DNA of 64,000 nt from a bacterium (GCA_037143195.1 JBAWZD010000002.1:140620-204619), one strand, 5' to 3'. Shown: positions 1,437-22,264, counted from the stretch's first letter. Notes: generated by a model from the sequence alone, not told the origin. A program made the numbers and translations.

Positions 1437-1845
1437 GGGGATGAAATGAATAGACAATGAGTTTCATTCTGTGTGCGCATGTCGAGCAGGGGACTACTCT
1501 CGTAAATCGTGTCCTAAACATCCAAATGCAAAAACATCTGGTGCTAAAGTAGCTTCGCCTTACGCGAAGAGCTTTGGCTTCGCATTCGCTTAATAATATA
1601 AGCCAGTGCGATGTCTCACGCGCCGATTTCTAATACGCGATGTGAGGCATAATATTTTTAGAATAGAGGACGGTCCCGCTTTGGGCCATACTCGAAATCT
1701 GTAGAGCTCGGAACGAATGTATTTTGTCGTTTTACAAGCATTCGAACTTAAATCTGTCGCAAGACAGAATATAAAACTGACTACACATGTAGAAGCGCGT
1801 GGAATCACGCATTGCACGAGGGTTCGCTACCCTCCATCTCCACCC
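1437..1845 (+). ncRNA. ssrA: tmRNA (ssrA); tag reading frame 1528-1590 encodes AKTSGAKVASPYAKSFGFAFA followed by TAA TAA
   Basis: 5' GGGGATG pairs with 3' CATCTCC (1835-1841) giving tRNA-Ala-like acceptor with G3.U wobble, discriminator A then CC; T-arm GAGGG-ttcgcta-CCCTC 1818-1834; resume codon GCA; immediately downstream of smpB. Confidence 0.7.
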
Positions 1846-1849
1846 GTTG

Positions 1850-1884
1850 AAAAAAGAGCGCTCGCAAGAGCGCCTTTTTTCTTT
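1850..1884 (+). terminator. intrinsic terminator after tmRNA
   Basis: aaaaaaga GCGCTC gcaa GAGCGC cttttttcttt : 6-bp GC stem, GNRA loop, U-tract (A-tract upstream, possibly bidirectional). Confidence 0.6.
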
Positions 1885-1936
1885 GGTGGAGATGAGCGAG
1901 ACGCCTGCGCGTCTCGCGAGAGGGTAGCGAAAGCCG
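1884..1936. repeat. inverted partial copy of tmRNA 3' end (ggtggagatg ... agggtagcgaa)
   Basis: 1884-1893 ggtggagatg is reverse complement of catctccacc (tmRNA 1835-1844); 1920-1930 agggtagcgaa is reverse complement of ttcgctaccct (T-loop/stem). Confidence 0.5.
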
Positions 1937-2018
1937 GAGCGATGTTTCGCAAGCATGCGAAACCGCGAGGCGGGGTCGCGCACCTTCCGAGCGACGGCGA
2001 GGAAGGATGTGTGACCGC

Positions 2019-2032
2019 ACCCTCCATCTCCA
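2019..2032 (+). repeat. direct repeat of tmRNA 3'-terminal 14 nt ACCCTCCATCTCCA (att-like)
   Basis: identical 14-mer at 1829-1842 (T-stem 3' strand + acceptor 3' strand + discriminator) and 2019-2032. Confidence 0.6.
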
Positions 2033-2077
2033 AATACAAGAAATACCTTATAAATTAAGGTTTTTCTTGTATTTTAC

Positions 2078-2106
2078 TTGACTTTTATATATAAACATGG
2101 TAATAT
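2078..2106 (+). promoter_or_regulatory. cassette promoter 1: TTGACTTTTA -35, 17-bp spacer, TAATAT -10
   Basis: cttgacttttatatataaacatggtaatat; same architecture repeated at 2657, 3297, 4176. Confidence 0.5.
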
Positions 2107-2213
2107 ATTTTTTAAGTGTTGCTTGGCCTGCTTGAGGGTATTTATTGAATCATCCCTGCTTCTTGAGAGTGGTAGAGATGATTCAATAATCTCAAACAGA
2201 AAAACGAAACAAG

Positions 2214-2411
2214 ATGAAAAATGTAATGATTCTTTTAGTGATGTTAACACCGATGATTGGCATCATGGTGTACTCGGATCTCACTGGCACAAAGTGGCCA
2301 GAACTTCCTGTTTTTATCAAGGGCGTAACTTGGATATTTGCCCTTGGATCATGTATCCAGGAACTGAGACTGCTCTATATCCTTTTAATAAAAGGGGAGA
2401 GACCAGAATAA
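2214..2411 (+). CDS. hypothetical small hydrophobic protein (65 aa), cassette 1
   Basis: ORF MKNVMILLVMLTPMIGIMVYSDLTGTKW...; downstream of cassette promoter, followed by hairpin + T-tract 2425-2460; weak RBS. Confidence 0.4.
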   Translation: MKNVMILLVMLTPMIGIMVYSDLTGTKWPELPVFIKGVTWIFALGSCIQELRLLYILLIKGERPE

Positions 2412-2460
2412 GTAAAGTATATTAATTTATAAAACCTGTCTTCGGATGGGTTTTATTTTT

Positions 2461-2650
2461 TCTATATTAGTTCATTGCTCTCGTCCCATACAGCAGGGAA
2501 CTAGCCAGTATCCGCAAGTAATTTTCGCATCGCAGGGCTACTTTGGTAATACACCCAAAACCGAGAAAGGTAATCTTGCAGGCGGTTCAACGTATTTCTC
2601 TGTGTGTCCACAATCTTAAGAAAAGCCTTACATTGTAAGGCTTTTCTTGT
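2461..2650 (+). repeat. conserved intercassette non-coding element, copy A (candidate sRNA; ends in 10-bp hairpin AAAAGCCTTA-cattg-TAAGGCTTTT)
   Basis: aligns with 3160-3296: gctctc..agggaacta.ccagta.cc..aag.aattt...ttggtaata..cccaaaac.gagaaaggta.tcttg. Confidence 0.5.
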
Positions 2651-2656
2651 TTTACC

Positions 2657-2690
2657 TTGACTTTTAGTAATATATAGTGTGTATTATAAT
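2657..2690 (+). promoter_or_regulatory. cassette promoter 2 (TTGACTTTTA -35, tattataat -10 region)
   Basis: ccttgacttttagtaatatatagtgtgtattataat. Confidence 0.45.
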
Positions 2691-2717
2691 CTAAGCTAAA
2701 CCATCTAAAATTCTTTT

Positions 2718-3113
2718 ATGAAATCAAACATTTTTTGGTACCAATACCCTCTTGCAGAGGATGAAAAAAATACGCTGAGAAAATCTGAAGTTGGGAGAGA
2801 GGTTCTCCGTCTTTACGAACTTTGCGTGCAGGGGCGAAAGACAGTCAAGCGTGTGAGATATGTTTGTTCTATTATAGTGGCCGTCATTATTTTTTTAGGT
2901 GCAAAGACAGAAACATCTTTGCTTCCGGCGGTTAGTATAAGCGTTGTTGTTTCACTTGTATTTTTTGCGTGGTCATGGTTTATCCTTACCGAGGAGAGAA
3001 ACCGAGATATCAAAGAAACAGAAGACGTCATCGCTAAATTGTGCGAAGAGCAAGGAGGTACTCAAATTGGAGGTATCCTTCAACGCATGATAGACAACGG
3101 TAGGGTGTTGTAG
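2718..3113 (+). CDS. hypothetical small membrane protein (131 aa, two predicted TM helices), cassette 2
   Basis: ORF with hydrophobic segments SIIVAVIIFLGAK and VSISVVVSLVFFAWSWFIL; preceded by cassette promoter. Confidence 0.45.
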   Translation: MKSNIFWYQYPLAEDEKNTLRKSEVGREVLRLYELCVQGRKTVKRVRYVCSIIVAVIIFLGAKTETSLLPAVSISVVVSLVFFAWSWFILTEERNRDIKETEDVIAKLCEEQGGTQIGGILQRMIDNGRVL

Positions 3114-3159
3114 GTTTAAATTATTGAAGCAGAAGTCGTTCCAAATTTATGGGGCGGCT

Positions 3160-3296
3160 TTTTCTGTTATACCAATTCCGTGCTCTCCCTGTGTCTGTAC
3201 AAAAGGGAACTACCCAGTACCCATAAGCAATTTGGGGATCATCGTGCTGGATTGGTAATAAGTCCAAAACTGAGAAAGGTATTTCTTGTATTCATA
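3160..3296 (+). repeat. conserved intercassette non-coding element, copy B
   Basis: see copy A; starts right after terminator of cassette 2 (gggcggctttttctg) and runs into cassette promoter 3. Confidence 0.5.
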
Positions 3297-3325
3297 TTGA
3301 CTTTTAAATATAAATATGTTATTAT
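3297..3325 (+). promoter_or_regulatory. cassette promoter 3: TTGACTTTTA, 17-bp spacer, TATTAT
   Basis: attgacttttaaatataaatatgttattat. Confidence 0.5.
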
Positions 3326-3417
3326 ATAAGCTGGTTTTTCTTTGAAATAGCCTTTTGTTCAAGCGCTGTGGTCGCAAAATTTGTTGCTAGAGCGCCTGAA
3401 CAAATTAGAGGCAAAAA

Positions 3418-3951
3418 ATGATAGAAGCAGCATCTCTCAGAAAGCAAAGTCTTGCATTATTTAAGCAAGCAATTTATGTTCGTGCTCGCATGAACGACGA
3501 ACAAGACCATCAGGATAATGGGACGAATACCCATGTATCTCAGTTTAAGAATCTCGGCAAAGATGTGCTCGATCAGCTAATCGCGCACTTGGACTTGAAC
3601 CAGGGAGGTCAATTTGATCGAGTGAGTCAAGTCGACCTTGCATTTTGGGGTCCGCTTACCGGGTTTACAGTTGTTGCCGAAGATGTGGCAACGAATCGTT
3701 GGGGTCAGGCTACCGTGCTTGATGTTCTGAGCGAGTTTATTGCTCGTCCGGAAAATGAAAAGAGGTTTCTTACGCACAGTTACTTTGATCCAACCTTAGT
3801 AATTATCACGTGCTATAGTACCACTTATTATCCTGACGAAAGTACTTACTTTAACATCACGCATGATCCATATGTGATTTGCGCTGATGTGAGAAAGAAA
3901 TGTATTCGCATCATAAATGATGCGAGAGTCACTCGGCAAAACCCACAGTAA
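3418..3951 (+). CDS. hypothetical protein (177 aa, soluble), cassette 3
   Basis: ORF with AGAGG RBS 8 nt upstream (aattagaggcaaaaaATG); no recognisable domain. Confidence 0.5.
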   Translation: MIEAASLRKQSLALFKQAIYVRARMNDEQDHQDNGTNTHVSQFKNLGKDVLDQLIAHLDLNQGGQFDRVSQVDLAFWGPLTGFTVVAEDVATNRWGQATVLDVLSEFIARPENEKRFLTHSYFDPTLVIITCYSTTYYPDESTYFNITHDPYVICADVRKKCIRIINDARVTRQNPQ

Positions 3952-5278: not shown

Positions 5279-7234
5279 ATGACTACAAACAACAAAGACC
5301 CGAAGATGGACGAGGAGAAGGGCAAGGCTCCGTCACCAAATCCTAAAATGCCAGTGCCACCGACGTCGAGTCTCGGACGAAATATTCTCGTCACGGTACT
5401 CATTTTTATGATTATTACGGCTGCGTACATCTTTTTTTCTGGCAAAGCGACACCAGCAAACAAGAGTATTTCACTTTCTGAGCTCGCCAAAGATGTGACG
5501 ACCGGCACTGTAAAGACTATTGAAGTCGATGGTGATGCGCTCACGATCAAACTCCAAGACGGCTCGACGGTGACTGCCAAGAAAGAAGTCGAAGCATCGC
5601 TCTCGGAGACACTCAAAAATTACGGCGTACCTGCGGACAAAGTGAGCGCTACTGATATTACAGTGAAATCATCGACCGATGCGATGTACTGGATTTTTAA
5701 CATCGTGCCAATCGTGCTTCCAATCATCGTCATCATTTTCTTTTTCTGGTATCTCTCTCGACAGGCCAAAGGTGCTGGCATGCAAGCGTTCACCTTCGGT
5801 CAATCCAAAGCGCGTATGACTGATCCATCAGATCAGAACAATCGCGTCACATTCAAAGATGTCGCTGGAGCAAAAGAAGCCAAAGAAGAATTGAAAGAGA
5901 TTGTGGACTTCTTGAAGAATCCAAAAAAGTTTCTCGACATTGGTGCACGTATTCCAAAAGGTGTTTTGCTCACTGGTGCTCCCGGAACAGGAAAGACATT
6001 GCTTGCTCGTGCAGTAGCGGGGGAGGCGAATGTGCCATTCTTCCATCTCTCCGGTTCTGAATTCGTCGAGATGTTTGTGGGTGTTGGTGCTTCGCGCGTA
6101 CGCGACCTCTTTCAGAAGGCGAAGCGCGCCGCGCCCGCAATAGTGTTCATCGACGAGATTGACGCGGTCGGGCGCGTGCGCGGCACTGGCGTCGGTGGAG
6201 GAAATGACGAACGCGAACAAACACTGAACCAGATCCTCGTTGAGATGGACGGCTTCGAACCGAACGACAAAGTCATCGTCATGGCAGCAACAAACCGCAA
6301 CGACGTGCTTGATCCAGCCTTGCTCCGTCCAGGACGTTTCGACAGACGTGTTGTACTCGATCTTCCTGATCGTCGCGACCGTGAAGAAATTCTCAAAGTA
6401 CACGCACTCAAAAAGCCACTCGCCGAAGATGTAAATCTCGTCATTATTGCCGAGCGTACGAGCGGATTCTCCGGTGCAGATCTCTACTCACTCATGAACG
6501 AAGGTGCAATTCTTGCTGCACGTGAAAATCGAAAAAAAGTTTCGCAATTTGATCTCGTGCGATCAATCGAAAAAGTGATGCTTGGTCCTGAACGCAAGAG
6601 TCATCTTTTCTCGACAGAAGAAAAGAAAGTGACTGCATATCACGAAGGTGGCCATGCACTCGTCGCTTCAGTGTTGCCACATGCTGACCCAGTCCACAAA
6701 GTCTCAATCGTTGCACGTGGACGCGCTGGCGGATATACGCTCAAGATTCCGCTTGAAGAACGCAAACTTCAAACCAAGAGTGAATTCCTCGACGATATTG
6801 CAATGGCGCTTGGAGGAATGGCTGCGGAGAAAATGGTCTTTGGTGATATCACCACTGGTCCATCGAATGACTTGCAGGTAGCAACAGGACTTGCTCGTGC
6901 CATGGTCACACGATGGGGAATGTCAGATGTCATTGGACCTGTAGCCCTCGAAAGTGATGGCGGACGTACGATATCAGGTGGCGCACAAGCAGACGGAGAT
7001 ATGTCTGAAGCCACTCACGCAATCGTAAACTCAGAGGTCAAAAAAATCATGGACGAAGGTCTCGTTCGCGCAACACAGGTACTCACGGACCACCGCACAA
7101 CGCTCGACGCGATCGCCGACAAACTCGTCGAAGTCGAAACACTCGAACAACCTGAGTACGAAGCGATCATCAAAGCGCATGGCATCAAGCTCAAGAAGAA
7201 AGTTGATGTTGTCGCCGAACTTGCGAAAGCGTAG
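5279..7234 (+). CDS. ftsH: ATP-dependent zinc metalloprotease FtsH
   Basis: N-terminal TM, AAA Walker [18 protein letters not shown], second-region-of-homology, HEGGHAL zinc motif; extended -10 TGTATAAT at ~5206. Confidence 0.95.
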
Positions 7235-7320: not shown

Positions 7321-7393
7321 CCACCCTTAGCTCAGTTGGTTAGAGCATCGAGCTTATACCTCGAGGGTCCTTGGTTCGAATCCAAGAGGGTGG
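7321..7393 (+). tRNA. tRNA-Ile with anticodon UAU (anticodon loop cTTATAc)
   Basis: acceptor CCACCCT/AGGGTGG, D-arm GCTC-agttggtta-GAGC, anticodon stem TCGAG/CTCGA, T-arm CTTGG-ttcgaat-CCAAG, discriminator A. Confidence 0.7.
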
Positions 7394-7400
7394 ACATTCT

Positions 7401-8402
7401 ATGACTCAACTTAGCATCATCATTATTCTGGTTATCCTTGGCGCTGCTGTCTGTGCGTGTCTTGAGGCTGCGTTTTTTAGTTTGCCACTTGCGAGTGCGA
7501 AACTACTCTTCGAGAAGGGGAAGCGCGGGAGCGCTTCACTCGTGCGAGTCAAAGAAAAACTTCATCACTCAATCATCACACTTGTGATATTGAACAACGG
7601 CATCACCATTGCGGGCTCTATCTACGTTGGTCACCTTGCGACTGAACTGTACGGTAATCAAATCATCGGAGTGATTTCGACGTTTCTCACGATTACTATC
7701 GTGCTCCTTGGTGAGATTATTCCAAAGATGCTCGGAGAGAATTATGCCAAACAAATCTCGCTCGCATTCGCTCCACCAGTGTATTTCTTGACCCAGCTAT
7801 TCATGCCGATTACATTTTTGCTCGATATACTCACAAAAGGATTTTTGACCAAGAATCGTGTCGTATCCGAAGAAGAATTGCGGATGCTTTCCAAAATGGG
7901 GGAGGCCGAAGGTTCTATCGAACACGACGAACAAGTGCTCATTCAGCGCGTGTTTACGCTCAACGATCTCACTGCCAAAAATATTATGACACCTCGCGAC
8001 GTTGTTGAGGGGTTGCCAGCGAATGCCACTGTGCGCGAAGTGTCTGTTGTGCTTCTCAACAAACCGTATTCTCGCTATCCAGTCTTCGGCGAAACTATCG
8101 ACAAGATCGTTGGTGTTGTGCAAACAAACAAACTACTTTCATCACTCGCTCGTGACAATGACAAAGAACTCGTTTCTCATTTTATGACGACACCACTCTT
8201 CGTGCCTGAAACGAAGCGTGTGGATGACCTCATGGGTATTTTTCTTGCGACCCGCAATCATATGGCGGTCGTACAAAATGCGAGTGGCACTACCGTTGGC
8301 GTTGTGACATTTGAAGACGTCCTCGAACAACTCGTTGGAGAAATTGTTGATGAGACTGACGAAGTCGTCGATCTACAAACACTCGTTCGTCACTCGAAGT
8401 GA
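7401..8402 (+). CDS. CNNM/TlyC/CorC-family membrane protein (DUF21 transmembrane domain + CBS pair + CorC_HlyC C-terminal domain)
   Basis: four N-terminal TM helices, CBS-like segments (IMTPRDVVEGL..., MAVVQNASGTTVGVVTFEDVLEQLVGEI); start placed after tRNA end. Confidence 0.7.
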   Translation: MTQLSIIIILVILGAAVCACLEAAFFSLPLASAKLLFEKGKRGSASLVRVKEKLHHSIITLVILNNGITIAGSIYVGHLATELYGNQIIGVISTFLTITIVLLGEIIPKMLGENYAKQISLAFAPPVYFLTQLFMPITFLLDILTKGFLTKNRVVSEEELRMLSKMGEAEGSIEHDEQVLIQRVFTLNDLTAKNIMTPRDVVEGLPANATVREVSVVLLNKPYSRYPVFGETIDKIVGVVQTNKLLSSLARDNDKELVSHFMTTPLFVPETKRVDDLMGIFLATRNHMAVVQNASGTTVGVVTFEDVLEQLVGEIVDETDEVVDLQTLVRHSK

Positions 8403-10560
8403 ACTTCTAATTTTTTTATATCTAGAATTGCCTTCATGGCGGGGTAATTCGTCATGTGCGGGTCACGCGTAATGAGCGCGCTCGCTTCCGCTCGCGCAGC
8501 CTCCACCATTTTTATATTCCGTATAGCCTCCATCCCAAGATCGGTGATGCCCCATTGTTTGGTGCCTCCAAGTTCACCTGCACCACGGAGTGCGAGGTCG
8601 TGTTCTGAAAGTTCGAACCCATTTTTCGCTGTTTTGATTGCGTTCAATCGGTCGGCTGTCTTTTCTGATTTTGTTTCGGCGAAGAGGTAACAGTAGGCTT
8701 GGTGATTGCTTCGAATGACACGTCCACGGAGCTGGTGAAGTTGGGCGAGACCAAAACGCTCCGCACCCTCGATGATGATGAGCGTTGCGTTGGGGACGTT
8801 CACTCCAACTTCAACGACACTTGTTGCCACGAGAATATCTATTTTGTGTGAGGAGAATTCTTCCATGACCGTGTCCTTTTTTGCAGGTGTCATTTTGGAA
8901 TGCAAAATACCAATCGTGTATTCAGGGAAAATACTCGTGCGAAGATGTTCTGCTTCGGCAGTGACTGAACGCGCTTGCACTGCCATTTCTTTTTCTGGAT
9001 CCGGCTCATCGATGCGAGGGCAGATGACGTATGCTTGGCGACCATTTTCGAGTTCCTTCCTGATGAACGCGTAGACAGCGTCGCGACCGTTTGGGAGGAC
9101 GATCTCGGTAATGATTGGTTTGCGACCCATTGGCATTTCATCGAGAATGGAAAGATCGAGGTCGCCGTAGATGGTGAGTGCAAGTGTGCGGGGGATTGGA
9201 GTCGCCGTCATTGAGAGGAGGTGTGGAGCAAAGCCTTCCTTCGTCACGAGCTTCTTTCTCTGCATGGTGCCGAAGCGGTGTTGTTCGTCGATGATGGCGA
9301 GGGCGAGGTGTTTGAATTTGACACTCTTTTGAATGAGCGCGTGCGTGCCGATGAGGATTGGGATTTCACCATTCGCGACCCATTTCAAAAGTTGCGTGCG
9401 TGAAATTGCCGTCCACGGTTCTTTTGCTGACGCGACTTTGGTCGGGAACTTGCGACAGCCCGATCCGGTGATGAGCCCGACAGAGATGCCGGTGTGTTTG
9501 AAGTAGTTGATGAAATTTTCAAAATGCTGAGTGGCGAGAATTTCTGTCGGCGCCATGTAGGCGACCTGAAGATTGCCGTAGGTTTTGCCGTCGGGGCGAG
9601 TCTTGATCGTCGCGTACGAAAGTGTGGCTGCGACCGCGGTTTTGCCTGAGCCGACGTCTCCCTCGAGCAGACGTGCCATCGGATGAGGCTTTGCCATATC
9701 GGTGAGCATTGTCGCGATTGCATTTTCTTGCGCGCGCGTTTGCTTGAACGGAAATCGTCCGACGAAATCAGCGATATCATCTGGATTGTAATTGACGGGG
9801 AATGATTTGTTTTCTAAATAGTTTTCGCGTTCGATTTTGCGAGTGAGTTGGATGAAAAAAACCTCTTCGAAGCTAAATCGCTTGCGTGCTGCCTGCGCGT
9901 TGTTTTCTGTTTGGGGAGCATGCATCCAGACGAGTGCCGTCGAGAGTTTGGGGAGATTGTATTTTGCGAGCATTTCGCTCGGGAGATAGTCGTCGAGATT
10001 TTGTACGAGTCCTGATTTGAGAACCTTTTGGATCGTGTGATATATGAAGCGCGAGGTGATACCACGAGTCTCACGGTAAATGGGGAAGCCAAATATTTCT
10101 GCGGCCTCGCGGTCTGCACCAAAGAGCGATCCATGCATGTCGATCGGGAGTGCATTCTTTTCTTTGAGTTCGGGATTGGAAAGATAGATACCGTTTTTGC
10201 CTTCGGCGATTTTGCCGGAGAGTTCGACGGTGTCACCTTCGTGAACCATTTTGGCCATATAGGCTTGATTAAACCAAATGATACCGATGCGTCCTGAACT
10301 ATCTTCAAGCTCTGCTTCACCCATAGGCATTTTGCTTTTGAAAGCTTTTCGAGTTTTGAGTTTGCCGATGCGACCGTAGAGAGTGACGGTGTCGCCGACG
10401 ACAGCATCGCGAATGAGTTTGATCTCACTCACGTTCGTGTAGCGAACAGGGAAGTAGTAGAGCATGTCACGAATGGTTTTGAGACCAAGACGGGCAAGCG
10501 CTTTTTTCTGTTCCTCGCTTGTTCTGAAATGTTTAACTAAATCGTCACTTAAATACATAT
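8390..10560 (-). CDS. recG: ATP-dependent DNA helicase RecG
   Basis: wedge/OB N-terminus, helicase motifs GDVGSGKT, DEQHRFG, C-terminal helicase domain; start taken at MYLSDD (ATG 10560) rather than GTG at 10603. Confidence 0.9.
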
Positions 10561-10692
10561 GGCTAGTATAGCGCAAAGTGCGCACATGTACTTGAAAAAG
10601 CACCGGCGTAAAATCCTGAAGGATTTTCGCCTTATTCTCGCGCCGTCGCGCTCCGAAGATGCTTTTTCAAGTACATGTGCGCACTTTGCGCT
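10561..10692. repeat. 42-bp near-perfect inverted repeat (41/42) with 48-bp spacer between response-regulator gene and recG
   Basis: 10561-10602 ggctagtatagcgcaaagtgcgcacatgtacttgaaaaagca vs reverse complement of 10651-10692; spacer holds nested hairpin aaaatcc-tgaa-ggatttt. Confidence 0.8.
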
Positions 10693-10708
10693 ATGCTAGC
10701 CAGCCGTG

Positions 10709-11077
10709 TTACTTGAGAATTTCTTTAATTCGGTCTGCGAGTTCGTCGAGAGTGAAATTACTCTTCACCATGTAGTCTGTGGCACCGAGGTCTTTTGCAT
10801 GTTTGATGTCCTTTTCTTCTGAGAGGTTTGAAAAAACAATAACAGGAGTATTTGCTGTTTTAGGATTTTCGCGGACCATTTTGAGAATCCCGAATCCATC
10901 AGTCCCTGGCATGACGAGGTCGCAGAGCATGAGGTCTGGAGTGTCGGTTGAGAGAGCTTTCATAGCTTCTTCGCTATTTGAGGCACTTACGACCATGAAG
11001 CCCTCTTTTTCGAGCTTGGTGGAAGCGAGTCCTTGGAGGAAGCTGTCGTCTTCGATAATCAGGATTTTCTTGTTCAT
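10709..11077 (-). CDS. single-domain response regulator (CheY-like receiver)
   Basis: MNKKILIIEDD...LMLCDLVMPGTDG...TPVIVFSNLS...K receiver signature. Confidence 0.85.
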   Translation of the reverse strand: MNKKILIIEDDSFLQGLASTKLEKEGFMVVSASNSEEAMKALSTDTPDLMLCDLVMPGTDGFGILKMVRENPKTANTPVIVFSNLSEEKDIKHAKDLGATDYMVKSNFTLDELADRIKEILK

Positions 11078-11203
11078 ACGAAAATTGTACTATGCGCCAT
11101 CCCATATCGCAACCTTGAAAAGTTTATCTCTGTGTATATGGCAAAAACCATAAAACTAAGCATGTTTATGGAGTTTTAGGGTTCGAGTCTGTATACTGTA
11201 AAA

Positions 11204-11890
11204 ATGAAAAAAATACCTCGGGCAATACAACGGTCTTGTGTCGTCCTTTTTGGGCTCACGCTCGTGTTTGTTTTGTTTTTTCATTTTAGGAAACAACAGG
11301 TTGCCCCAGCTTTTGTAGCGGATAAAAACATTGTTGACCCTGCGCTTGTTACTGGTATCTATCAGCAGAATGATAGATATCTTTTGGTTGTTGAATCAAA
11401 GATCTTTGGCACAGATACTGAGTCTGATATGTATATTATTGATTACAATGTTCCGCTACCAGCTTCGCGCATAGTCAGTACTCCACTTGGCAGGTTCTCA
11501 AAAGGGAAATCAACATATAATTTTGATGCGGCACATTGTATCGCCACGTATAGCTTCGCTGGATCGAAGATGTATATTGCACCGAATACTGCGTCCTGTA
11601 TGGCTGAACCAAACCTTGAGGGGATATATACAAAGATAAGCGCTGTGTCCCCTGAGCATGCGAGCGAAATCGTCTCAAATATTCCCGAAGTGAAAAAATG
11701 GCTTCCTCGTATTAAGGGAAATACTGACTGGCCAGACCAACCTCCGTACATCGACGCCATAACATCGAATTCCTACACGATTGTTGTTCCAGGGCTAGAG
11801 AAAGCTAATATTTTTGGTATTGCTCCTATGGGCCCGTACAAAGTCAGTGCGATATCAGGTGATGTTGTGCCTGTTCCTAGATCACGGTAA
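11204..11890 (+). CDS. hypothetical protein with N-terminal TM anchor
   Basis: long ORF, TM at residues ~12-27; no recognisable domain. Confidence 0.5.
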   Translation: MKKIPRAIQRSCVVLFGLTLVFVLFFHFRKQQVAPAFVADKNIVDPALVTGIYQQNDRYLLVVESKIFGTDTESDMYIIDYNVPLPASRIVSTPLGRFSKGKSTYNFDAAHCIATYSFAGSKMYIAPNTASCMAEPNLEGIYTKISAVSPEHASEIVSNIPEVKKWLPRIKGNTDWPDQPPYIDAITSNSYTIVVPGLEKANIFGIAPMGPYKVSAISGDVVPVPRSR

Positions 11891-13195: not shown

Positions 13196-14221
13196 TTATC
13201 GTAGTCGGCTGAGGATGTCGTGATCTTCGATGTATTTGATGATTGCGGGTGGGAGGACAGTTTTCCATTGGTCGCCGTTGTGTGCGTTTTCGCGGACGAG
13301 ACCACTGCGGGCGCGGTCGCTTGATTCGGGGATGGTGATGACGACTTCGGCGCGGAAACCGATTTTTTTGAGGTAGTCAATTTTTTTGGTGTCGCTTGGT
13401 CCCGTGACGCTCATGAGGAAGATGGTACCTTTGGGGAGAAGCGCTTTGGAATTCTTGTAATCGCTTGGAAATGCTATGAATGAATATCGGGTGCGGTCGA
13501 CGCCTTCTGCTTCGAGTGCGAGGGTGAGCATGTCGACACGTTCGTCGTTGGTGAGGGGGTTTTGATGCGGCGCGCACGGGTACCCCGTGCGCGCCGCATC
13601 TGCCTCCGTACAAATCTCCGGAGTACAAATCCCAATCATTACATGCTCCGCTCGCTCGAGCGCTCTAAGGATATATGCGATGTGCCCGACATGCGGTGGC
13701 TGAAATCGTCCATGCACCAGACCGACAGGGTATTTTTTGTGCGCGAATTGTTTGCCAAGCGAATTCCATGGAAGTGAAATACTCCACGCGGGAAATTGTT
13801 TCAAAATCCATTCAGCATAGGTATTACTATTCGGACCAGTCGCAAAATACTCATCACGAAACGGATACGTGGTCGGAGTTGTTTCAATATATCGAGCGAT
13901 CGATTCGGCAAGTGACCCATTATCGCCTTCAATCACGCCCTCGACACGAACGGCAACGTCCCAAAATCTATCATCGGTCCACAAACTCATCTCTGTCCCT
14001 TGGAAGGGAAGCAGACAATCGGTATACAAAAATCCTGAATGCACACCCGACAGCGTTTGTGCATGGCGCACTTCATATCGATGTACCACGCCTTTCATGT
14101 TCACCACGAACCATGGATGACGCACGAACTGTACAGGAATTGCGGCAGGGCAGGTACAGAGAAAAACCTGAAACTTGTTGGGGTCAATGAGCGACTTGCG
14201 TTTTTCCGCGTTTGGAAGCAT
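13196..14221 (-). CDS. fusion protein: N-terminal domain of unknown function + C-terminal NadM-type nicotinamide-nucleotide adenylyltransferase (cytidylyltransferase fold)
   Basis: C-terminal half YPVGLVHGRFQPPHVGHIAYILRA... = (H/T)xGH nucleotidyltransferase motif as in archaeal-type NMNAT; N-terminal 165 aa unrecognised. Confidence 0.6.
   Translation of the reverse strand: MLPNAEKRKSLIDPNKFQVFLCTCPAAIPVQFVRHPWFVVNMKGVVHRYEVRHAQTLSGVHSGFLYTDCLLPFQGTEMSLWTDDRFWDVAVRVEGVIEGDNGSLAESIARYIETTPTTYPFRDEYFATGPNSNTYAEWILKQFPAWSISLPWNSLGKQFAHKKYPVGLVHGRFQPPHVGHIAYILRALERAEHVMIGICTPEICTEADAARTGYPCAPHQNPLTNDERVDMLTLALEAEGVDRTRYSFIAFPSDYKNSKALLPKGTIFLMSVTGPSDTKKIDYLKKIGFRAEVVITIPESSDRARSGLVRENAHNGDQWKTVLPPAIIKYIEDHDILSRLR
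13564..13600. repeat. 37-bp perfect GC-rich hairpin palindrome (17-bp arms, 3-nt loop) inside the NMNAT-fusion CDS
   Basis: gatgcggcgcgcacggg-tac-cccgtgcgcgccgcatc; local GC far above flanks. Confidence 0.8.
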
Positions 14222-22035: not shown

Positions 22036-22103
22036 CTTAGTATAGGAATTATATAAGTGCTTGATTACAAAATAGTTTTTATAAAGTACGGCTTCACTAT
22101 CTG

Positions 22104-22189
22104 CGGAGGCGGTGAGATTCGAACTCACGGAACCAATTAAGGTTCGACGGTTTAGTAAACCGTTGATTTAAACCACTCATCCACGCCTC
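22104..22189 (-). tRNA. type II tRNA (Ser-like: long variable arm, discriminator G) with unusual anticodon loop uuACUaa
   Basis: RC reads GGAGGCG-tg-GAT..ATC-a-ACGGT-ttactaa-ACCGT-c-GAACC-ttaatt-GGTTC-c-GTGAG-ttcgaat-CTCAC-CGCCTCC-g. Confidence 0.6.
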
Positions 22190-22264
22190 CTGTTTCGCAC
22201 TGATGCAGTATAGCTTTTATCGTGAAATAGGCAAGGCGAATTGTTTTTGTATATAATAGTACAC

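Follow-up and report, generated by a model that had tools for sequence, protein, structure and literature searches.

Integrases that carry their attachment site within their own gene have been described in archaea. In the SSV1-type ('suicidal', type I) integrases attP lies in the integrase gene (She et al. 2001; Badel et al. 2020, PMC7253208); when the element inserts at a tRNA-type gene, the integrase gene is divided in two, its pieces flank the element, and orphan pieces persist beside captured DNA (PMC7253208). These SSV-type tyrosine integrases are "so far restricted to archaea" (PMC7253208). Transfer-messenger RNA (tmRNA) genes are also the target of genomic islands whose integrases are tyrosine recombinases (Williams 2003, 'Traffic at the tmRNA gene', cited in PMC7192596); such islands build up serially downstream of ssrA and have a displaced gene 3' end at the far border, a long duplicated tmRNA 3' block and an intact integrase gene. 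Here we analyse a 64,000-nt stretch of bacterial DNA (GCA_037143195.1, JBAWZD010000002.1:140620-204619; below, the window) in which two copies, A and B, of a repeat lie downstream of a tmRNA gene. A preliminary description had taken the repeat for a family of small regulatory or antitoxin RNAs, or for recombination sites between gene cassettes. We find that both copies are the coding 3' end of a large serine recombinase (LSR) gene of Patescibacteria, and propose from sequence comparison, with a probability of roughly 85%, that they are orphaned attR-side scars left when elements inserted at the tmRNA 3' end on two separate occasions.

The parent LSR shares Resolvase, recombinase and zinc-ribbon domains and a long coiled coil with the serine integrases Bxb1, PhiC31, A118/LI and TP901-1, and the short identity between its att sites (TCCAC) is as expected for a crossover of a few bases. 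Unlike those enzymes it has its attP crossover in its own reading frame, so that integration exchanges its last 35 residues; it also targets tmRNA and tRNA (together, t(m)RNA) 3' ends, and has an extra C-terminal domain (about residues 448–513) followed by a two-helix tail. With the SSV-type integrases it has in common the attP within the gene, the split gene flanking the element and the orphan pieces in chromosomes. Those are tyrosine enzymes of archaeal hosts, whereas the present enzyme has the domains and fold of a serine recombinase and is found in Patescibacteria; furthermore, the SSV-type split divides essential parts and leaves both halves dead, while the LSR loses only the last 35 of its ~555 residues. 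In the integration-dependent immunity of mycobacteriophages such as BPs and Brujita, attP reportedly lies in the 3' part of the phage repressor gene. There too integration swaps a protein C-terminus and changes the behaviour of the protein, the state of the DNA being written into it, but the gene that is cut is that of the repressor and the integrase is a tyrosine recombinase. The tyrosine-integrase islands occupy the same hot spot and duplicate a long tmRNA block, whereas the repeat of the Patescibacteria element is 5–6 nt long and its far border is a piece of the integrase gene. An incomplete search of the literature returned no serine integrase with attP in its own gene and none at tmRNA in Patescibacteria, and in-gene attP is not mentioned in the portions available to us of a survey of LSRs (PMC10083194). 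Within the literature searched, an attP inside the integrase gene is reported only for the archaeal SSV-type tyrosine integrases, an absence that is not proof of novelty.

Copies A and B encode the C-terminal tail of a serine recombinase

The two copies align without gaps over 84 nt at 75% identity (2489–2572 against 3198–3281 in a repeat search), far beyond chance, and with gaps allowed a local alignment lengthens the match to about 120 nt (~2456–2578 against 3158–3288). With nhmmer each copy retrieved the other at E-values of 2e-11 to 4e-11, and neither found a third copy in the window, so the pair of aligned copies in the preliminary description is borne out. Read on the minus strand, copy A (2611→2504; 2501..2611 with its stop) holds the last 36 codons of an LSR gene (VDTQRNTLNRLQDYLSRFWVYYQSSPAMRKLLADTG) and copy B (3281→3213; 3210..3281 with its stop) the last 23 (YLSQFWTYYQSSTMIPKLLMGTG). 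Copy A (2611–2516) is 75% identical at the amino-acid level to residues 520–551 of the intact, 554-residue LSR P0146 (E 4e-9; loci and proteins from other genomes are given L and P numbers). It was also matched by P0037 and P0043 (tblastn), and in alignment A8 it is collinear with the tails of P0058, P0065 and P0043, which are LSR C-terminal sequences called as proteins starting inside the gene, and with that of the L111 contig. Peptide A in turn matches copy B at 65% identity over 23 aa (E 1e-5, tblastn). Copy B stops at the same position as copy A; its first 13 codons, the crossover core and the left hairpin arm are deleted, it is fused to the promoter of the next gene (gene 3), and its frame has no in-frame start before a TTG at 3377, inside that promoter.

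The search for homologues in related genomes that the preliminary description had proposed did turn up further copies. A two-copy profile, run with nhmmer on 80 SmpB-anchored relative loci, gave a single match, L038, and one back-translated peptide pattern then gave 43 metagenome loci. Copy A and L038 are both open frames of 35–36 codons beginning GTG GAC. Across codons 6–25, 8 of the changed codons are synonymous and 3 non-synonymous; the shifted frames give 2/12 and 4/11 (synonymous/non-synonymous). Serine codons also switch between AGT and TCA. Nearly all of the 43 metagenome loci begin GTG GA(C/G) and end ~35 codons on. When the retrieval codons were set aside, 40 distinct sequences had an entropy of 1.27 at third positions compared with 0.78 at positions 1 and 2, and the synonymous/non-synonymous ratio was 0.41 in the frame of the open reading frame (ORF) compared with 0.08–0.31 in the other five. 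The repeat is therefore conserved at the protein level, on the minus strand, and copies A and B resemble each other as descendants of protein-coding DNA selected in active elements, not as RNA genes.

At the protein level, three peptides joined into one query led to P0001, and a profile search of 1.84 billion representatives gave 70 matches, nearly always at a protein C-terminus, the long ones being LSRs. The boundary of the tail is precise: more than 40 loci share the GTGGA(C/G) start, and the flanks preceding it are unrelated between loci. A search of viral contigs with the peptide alignment confirmed none, and neither 50,697 phage nor 72,556 plasmid records contained a match to the C-terminal 106 aa of the LSR.

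The tail is found at the C-terminus of intact LSRs of ~555 aa from Patescibacteria; P0058, P0065, P0146 and the genes of L135 and L134 all end in it. Pfam finds Zn_ribbon_recom and Recombinase domains in P0058, and Resolvase, Recombinase and Zn_ribbon_recom in both the L077 protein and the reconstructed L086 protein; P0065 comes after a Resolvase-domain ORF in L127. An AlphaFold model of intact P0146, with a predicted local distance difference test (pLDDT) score of 84, gave full-length serine integrase–DNA complexes, Bxb1 and PhiC31, as best Foldseek matches (E 1e-16 to 1e-11), and it also shows a long coiled coil. No Pfam model covers the extra C-terminal domain or the two-helix tail. In the model the junction falls in a low-confidence linker (residues 512–524) between a C-terminal domain and a confidently predicted two-helix tail (523–553, pLDDT ~84), which suggests that the split would remove a separate terminal module and leave the catalytic, recombinase, zinc-ribbon and coiled-coil parts intact. 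At E<=1e-20 the database has over 1,200 homologues, which are entered as "recombinase family protein" from Parcubacteria/Paceibacterota/Minisyncoccia.

Four recombinases of the family (P0107, P0160, P0174 and P0178) have another C-terminal tail (..NLSNQF..W..) after the same D|VD junction. The differing tails suggest either alternative tail types or hybrid genes formed by recombination between elements.

Split, integrated and circular forms of the recombinase gene

The LSR gene occurs elsewhere in both split and unbroken form. In L086 the tail (6001–6105) and the body (9235–10803) lie on one strand, 4.8 kb apart. Homology of the body to intact enzymes ends at ...NPLD|VE, and from 10804 the sequence, GTGGAGATGGGGGGAATCGA, is the reverse complement of the tmRNA T arm and acceptor end; beyond two ~190-nt repeat units lies a complete tmRNA gene (11184–11575). 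The same tail-then-body order is found in L089 and L116. In L077 the LSR ORF (12326→10736) runs antisense into a tmRNA gene (10450–10808) just downstream of smpB, and in L005, again downstream of smpB, the LSR body ORFs are already interrupted and the last piece ends in antisense-t(m)RNA codons. The bodies in L086, L077, L005 and L129 all break off at one and the same codon, beyond which antisense t(m)RNA sequence takes over. Body and tail together are collinear with recombinases in which the two are unbroken, and the integrated-state proteins diverge from these right after V(E/D).

This exchange marks the databases as well. Directly after the junction, 96 of the 120 best database homologues carry a T-arm-antisense peptide (VEMGGIEP, VDPTGLEP or similar), and only 6 of the 120 keep the tail; most annotated members of the family, as judged from these best matches, thus have a false C-terminus derived from antisense t(m)RNA. 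Read antisense, the 3' end of the window's own tmRNA gives VEMEGSEPSCN, which is the C-terminus of the LSR P0131 from relatives; P0131 ending in this way indicates that relatives of the window organism carry such an element at the tmRNA site.

The unbroken state is represented by L135, whose two ends share the same 25 nt and whose 1076-aa ORF reads through the joint, so that it closes into a 6,509-nt circle; this carries an intact 559-aa LSR with GTGGAC in frame. Body and tail also meet at an unbroken junction in L134, L136, L111 and L128, which together with the L135 circle contradicts the view that the two are never joined. The in-gene attP that defines the SSV-type integrases is thus present here intact (L135) and split (L086, L089, L116). 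Altogether, the split, integrated and circular forms place the crossover within GTGGA/TCCAC, with attP in the LSR gene and attB at the end of a t(m)RNA gene.

These features point to a very large serine integrase family in Patescibacteria, with its attachment site in its own gene and t(m)RNA ends as targets. Integrated elements can be delimited to the single base by the tail motif KDYLSRFW combined with GTGGA, in genomes where their borders are otherwise difficult to draw. Moreover, attP and attB of hundreds of natural serine integrases become readable from sequence, which is useful for integrase mining. The exchange of the last 35 residues raises the question of its effect on the activity or direction of the enzyme, and could possibly be a built-in switch that signals the free as opposed to the integrated state.

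Other features accompany the recombinase genes. A ~270-aa MerR_1-like protein is encoded upstream of the recombinase in L134, L135 and L136, with a ~148-aa protein between the two genes in L134 and L135 (regions 3484–4969 in L134, 1124–2595 in L135 and 2360–3247 in L136); both proteins are candidates for a regulator or directionality factor. Similarly sized ORFs (275, 69 and 141 aa, known by size alone) occupy the same position in L086 (7748–9224). LOOT RNA (Rfam RF03000) lies within a few kb of recombinase genes or tails at five loci: L127, where one copy stands on each side of the recombinase region (7753–7867 and 13439–13556), L113 (11549–11666), L116 (7343–7463), L099 (11881–11997) and L108 (9184–9303).

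Copies A and B as probable integration scars, and the alternatives

In the mechanism we propose, crossover would take place between an attP core GTGGA (Val-Asp/Glu codons), inside the LSR gene and 35 codons ahead of its stop, and its complement, TCCAC, at a t(m)RNA 3' end. Recombination would leave the LSR body beside the t(m)RNA gene, reading antisense into it, and would shift the last 35 codons to the opposite end of the element, right next to the terminator hairpin and promoter that formerly lay downstream of the tmRNA. Copy A has the layout of such an attR: the reverse complement of stop and tail is followed by GTCCAC, AATCTT, a hairpin and a TTGACT promoter. Homology to LSR genes stops exactly at the crossover core GTCCAC (2606..2611; GTGGAC, Val-Asp codons, on the coding strand), a constant boundary at which element and target have a short core in common. 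The segment beyond it (2612..2690, plus strand; the putative B' side of attR) contains AATCTT, a terminator hairpin (2617–2649) and the promoter (TTGACT at 2657). It is 72% identical to the module directly 3' of the tmRNA in L001, the closest relative, whose site is unoccupied and whose module lies at 10869–10945. Because L001 has this module directly after TCCAC, the sequence that follows the copy A core is best read as the displaced native downstream region. Other genomes have this order of tail, core and module beside cargo of other kinds: L105 has a putative nucleotidyltransferase pair, L109 one small gene, L038 an AAA ATPase and L083 a type I restriction-modification system with Fic.

The likeness that the preliminary description saw between the 3' parts of the copies and the junction at 2029–2043 is real and reflects a hairpin and promoter module present three times in the window; the link that this description drew to the repeat of the tmRNA end was correct and proved the key clue. 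The hairpin and T-tract at the end of copy A were likewise confirmed, with arms of 15 nt instead of the 10 given (2618–2632 and 2634–2648, 100% complementary, then a T run). A terminator scan finds such a terminator after copy A and none belonging to copy B.

Two separate integrations are suggested by the relationships among the tails. In the coding part, copy A shares 78% identity with tails from unrelated metagenomes (L084/L085) but 72% with copy B, which argues that the two were acquired separately; copy B is as close to L109 (73%) as it is to A. The losses in copy B and its fusion to the next promoter fit an older scar, one that would have been pushed farther from the tmRNA while losing 13 codons, the core and half of the hairpin. 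That the integrations took place here, and that the recombinase bodies were lost later, we infer. If so, the supposed RNA family becomes two datable scars of mobile-element traffic, ordinary relics of a family that is not ordinary, and the layout between tmRNA and ftsH, with its repeated terminator–promoter modules, orphan small genes and copies of the tmRNA end, would be explained.

Several observations weigh against this origin. No LSR body was found anywhere in the window (tblastn, six LSR queries, E<1e-4), a finding that makes A and B orphans in the first place; only the 36 and 23 terminal codons are present at the locus, without catalytic or DNA-binding domains. Neither scar has an attL partner, the tmRNA being followed by a 187-nt structured insertion and cargo and no LSR body. 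The neighbours of A and B are encoded on the other strand from the tails, whereas in L086 every gene of the complete element shares the LSR strand. Insertion by a serine integrase destroys attB, so that a tandem series of scars needs an extra step, for which exchange between the three modules, regeneration of a B'-like arm and use, as a decoy, of the copy of the tmRNA end within the insertion at 1846–2032 are candidates. Body-less, tail-ended layouts recur in L038, L087, L105, L109 and L083, in at least six genomes, and are not well explained by simple decay. Nearly all orphan tails, copy A among them, have kept an open frame from GTG, which leaves room for a function of their own or for use as recombinase-binding arms by cassettes that are mobilised in trans. 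Finally, the relative L129 has a split LSR, P0131 (10001–11605), at its tmRNA gene, and the matching tail was not found within 10 kb; a 95-codon 3' fragment 8.8 kb away (2551–2845) has an unrecombined junction. Since this tail-bearing piece comes from a different LSR, L129 was rejected as a complete split element.

One alternative, which we regard as possible if doubtful, is that tail-ended units are mobilisable cassettes rather than dead scars, each made up of hairpin–promoter, gene, terminator and a tail ending in GTCCAC, and each retaining the P arm to which the recombinase binds. Such cassettes would be excised and re-inserted in trans by the LSR of a passing element, and the tmRNA gene of Patescibacteria would then harbour an integron-like array run by a serine recombinase. 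The three hairpin–promoter modules of the window may supply homology for cassette exchange. A common P' half-site was sought at the left ends of the body-less islands and gave no convincing consensus.

That the tail is an independent small gene, encoding a 35-aa protein from GTG on the minus strand, for example a directionality or regulatory peptide, is unlikely. Copy A and almost all orphan copies do keep a frame of the same length with GTG as first codon, AlphaFold shows the tail as a separate two-helix unit behind the low-confidence linker, and body-less islands with an intact tail occur in six or more genomes. In intact genes, though, this GTG is an internal Val codon of the LSR; no Shine-Dalgarno-like motif stands at the right distance from it, and a terminator hairpin lies immediately upstream. 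Copy B lacks the first 13 codons altogether, and the coding signature can date from the time that the sequence spent inside active recombinase genes.

It is improbable that a single integration was followed by local tandem duplication of tail, hairpin and promoter, with later replacement of the intervening genes. The hairpin–promoter module does occur three times at ~70% identity, and A and B share ~30 nt past the stop (2471..2500 on the minus strand next to copy A, TAGTTCCCT..TGTA....GAGAGC) that have no counterpart in other family members. Against duplication stand the tail comparisons given above, in which A is nearer to the L084/L085 tails than to B, and B matches L109 at the level at which it matches A. 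The flanking ORFs, moreover, are unrelated, as the preliminary description had stated, and are orphans.

The recombination sites proposed in the preliminary description survive in altered form, as probable attR-side remnants of a serine integrase. An integron attC site was rejected: the shared 84-nt core contains no internal inverted repeat of the imperfect-palindrome type, and the recombinase linked to tail elements elsewhere is a serine enzyme. Type I toxin–antitoxin was also rejected: the minus-strand peptide belongs to an LSR and is hydrophilic and rich in aromatic residues, and the neighbouring membrane-protein genes lie outside the repeat. A displaced or foreign tmRNA 3' fragment, considered because TCCAC(C)A and a terminator follow the element, was dropped because the reverse strand is coding and GTGGAC is a pair of Val-Asp codons. 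As for a plus-strand small RNA with its own weak promoter, regulating or acting as antitoxin to the neighbouring small membrane protein, copy A does lie between two terminators (2429–2456 and 2617–2649) and the -10-like hexamers noted earlier are present in the sequence (2463–2468 and 3165–3173), but neither box is listed by a sigma-70 promoter scan, which passes no site upstream of either copy, copy B has no terminator, Rfam has no match to either copy at the gathering threshold or at E<=10, minimum free energies on both strands of both copies are no better than those of shuffled sequences (z -0.33 to 0.25), the proposed test for compensatory changes gave 0 consensus pairs (RNAalifold, 32 homologues in the orientation first described), and variation is three-periodic in the minus-strand frame of homologues that are parts of recombinase ORFs, so that we consider this reading highly improbable and reject it.

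The smpB–ftsH interval and minor observations

SmpB protein matches identify the host as a member of the Patescibacteria that is Paceibacteria/Nomurabacteria-like; the closest match, 98% identical, is from a metagenome-assembled genome (MAG) of an uncultured bacterium, and the next ones are from Nomurabacteria and Paceibacterota MAGs. The interval opens with smpB (981–1424), followed on the plus strand by the tmRNA gene, the proposed integration target (1437..1845; Rfam RF00023, 110 bits, E 4e-42), with its TCCAC core at the 3' end (1839–1843). Alignment with L001 shows a 187-nt insertion directly after it (1846..2032, plus strand), which contains a terminator (1858–1873) and a GC-rich structured unit (1884–2032; 65% GC compared with 46% for the window) and is closed by a second copy of the tmRNA 3' end, ACCCTCCATCTCCA (2019–2032).

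Each of genes 1–3 is preceded by one copy of the hairpin–promoter module, detected as repeats at 2038–2073, 2618–2653 and 3257–3292. The first (2033..2108, plus strand; inverted repeat I6, direct repeats D2/D3) has a promoter-like site at 2078–2106 and is 73% identical to the native tmRNA-downstream module of L001. It leads into gene 1 (2214..2411, plus strand, from the ORF list), which encodes a small hydrophobic orphan protein of 65 aa and ends in a terminator (2429..2456, plus strand) ahead of copy A. Gene 2 (2718..3113, plus strand), behind the second module, encodes a 131-aa orphan membrane protein with a weak 8xMP match and has its terminator at 3131..3162 (plus strand), both terminators coming from the terminator scan. 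The third module, adjoining copy B, consists of the right hairpin arm and the TTGACT-17-TATTAT promoter of gene 3 (3276..3327, plus strand); as repeat D3 it is 83% identical to 2057–2108, and its promoter-like site is at 3297–3325. Gene 3 (3418..3951, plus strand; 177 aa, orphan) lies downstream of what would be the oldest scar, and two further small genes separate it from ftsH, which starts at 5279. Pfam gave nothing informative for the neighbouring small genes or for the 36-aa and 55-aa minus-strand ORFs, and homologues of the five cargo genes of the window were found in none of the fetched loci.

The GC-rich unit (1846–2032, core 1884–2032) is missing from L001, and ~24 copies of it stand just downstream of tmRNA or tRNA genes in other Patescibacteria, among them L006 (1066–1212), L007 (6203–6349), L125 (4930–5067 and 8153–8294), L086 (10992–11140), L080 and L056. 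Every copy has the 3' end of its neighbouring t(m)RNA repeated at its borders, once inverted and once in direct orientation. RNAalifold on 17 copies gave 38 pairs, 32 of them with compensatory double changes, and the CGAG and GAGCGACGGCGAG loops are invariant. The unit has no match in Rfam and looks like an undescribed structured RNA or a mini mobile element that targets t(m)RNA 3' ends.

Despite its 110-bit Rfam score, the window tmRNA (1437–1845) is missed by ARAGORN, as are the tmRNAs of L086 and L129. The same program reports two unusual decoding tRNAs in the window, a tRNA-Ser with anticodon ACT (22103–22190), alongside a GCT one, and a tRNA-Ile with anticodon TAT (7321–7395); both are also present in L038 (3818–3905 and 7762–7837). 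Finally, a 33-nt inverted repeat just upstream of smpB (411–443 and 527–559, 94% complementary, 83-nt spacer) may be a small insertion; in L129 the corresponding smpB flank holds a phosphoglucomutase-family gene.

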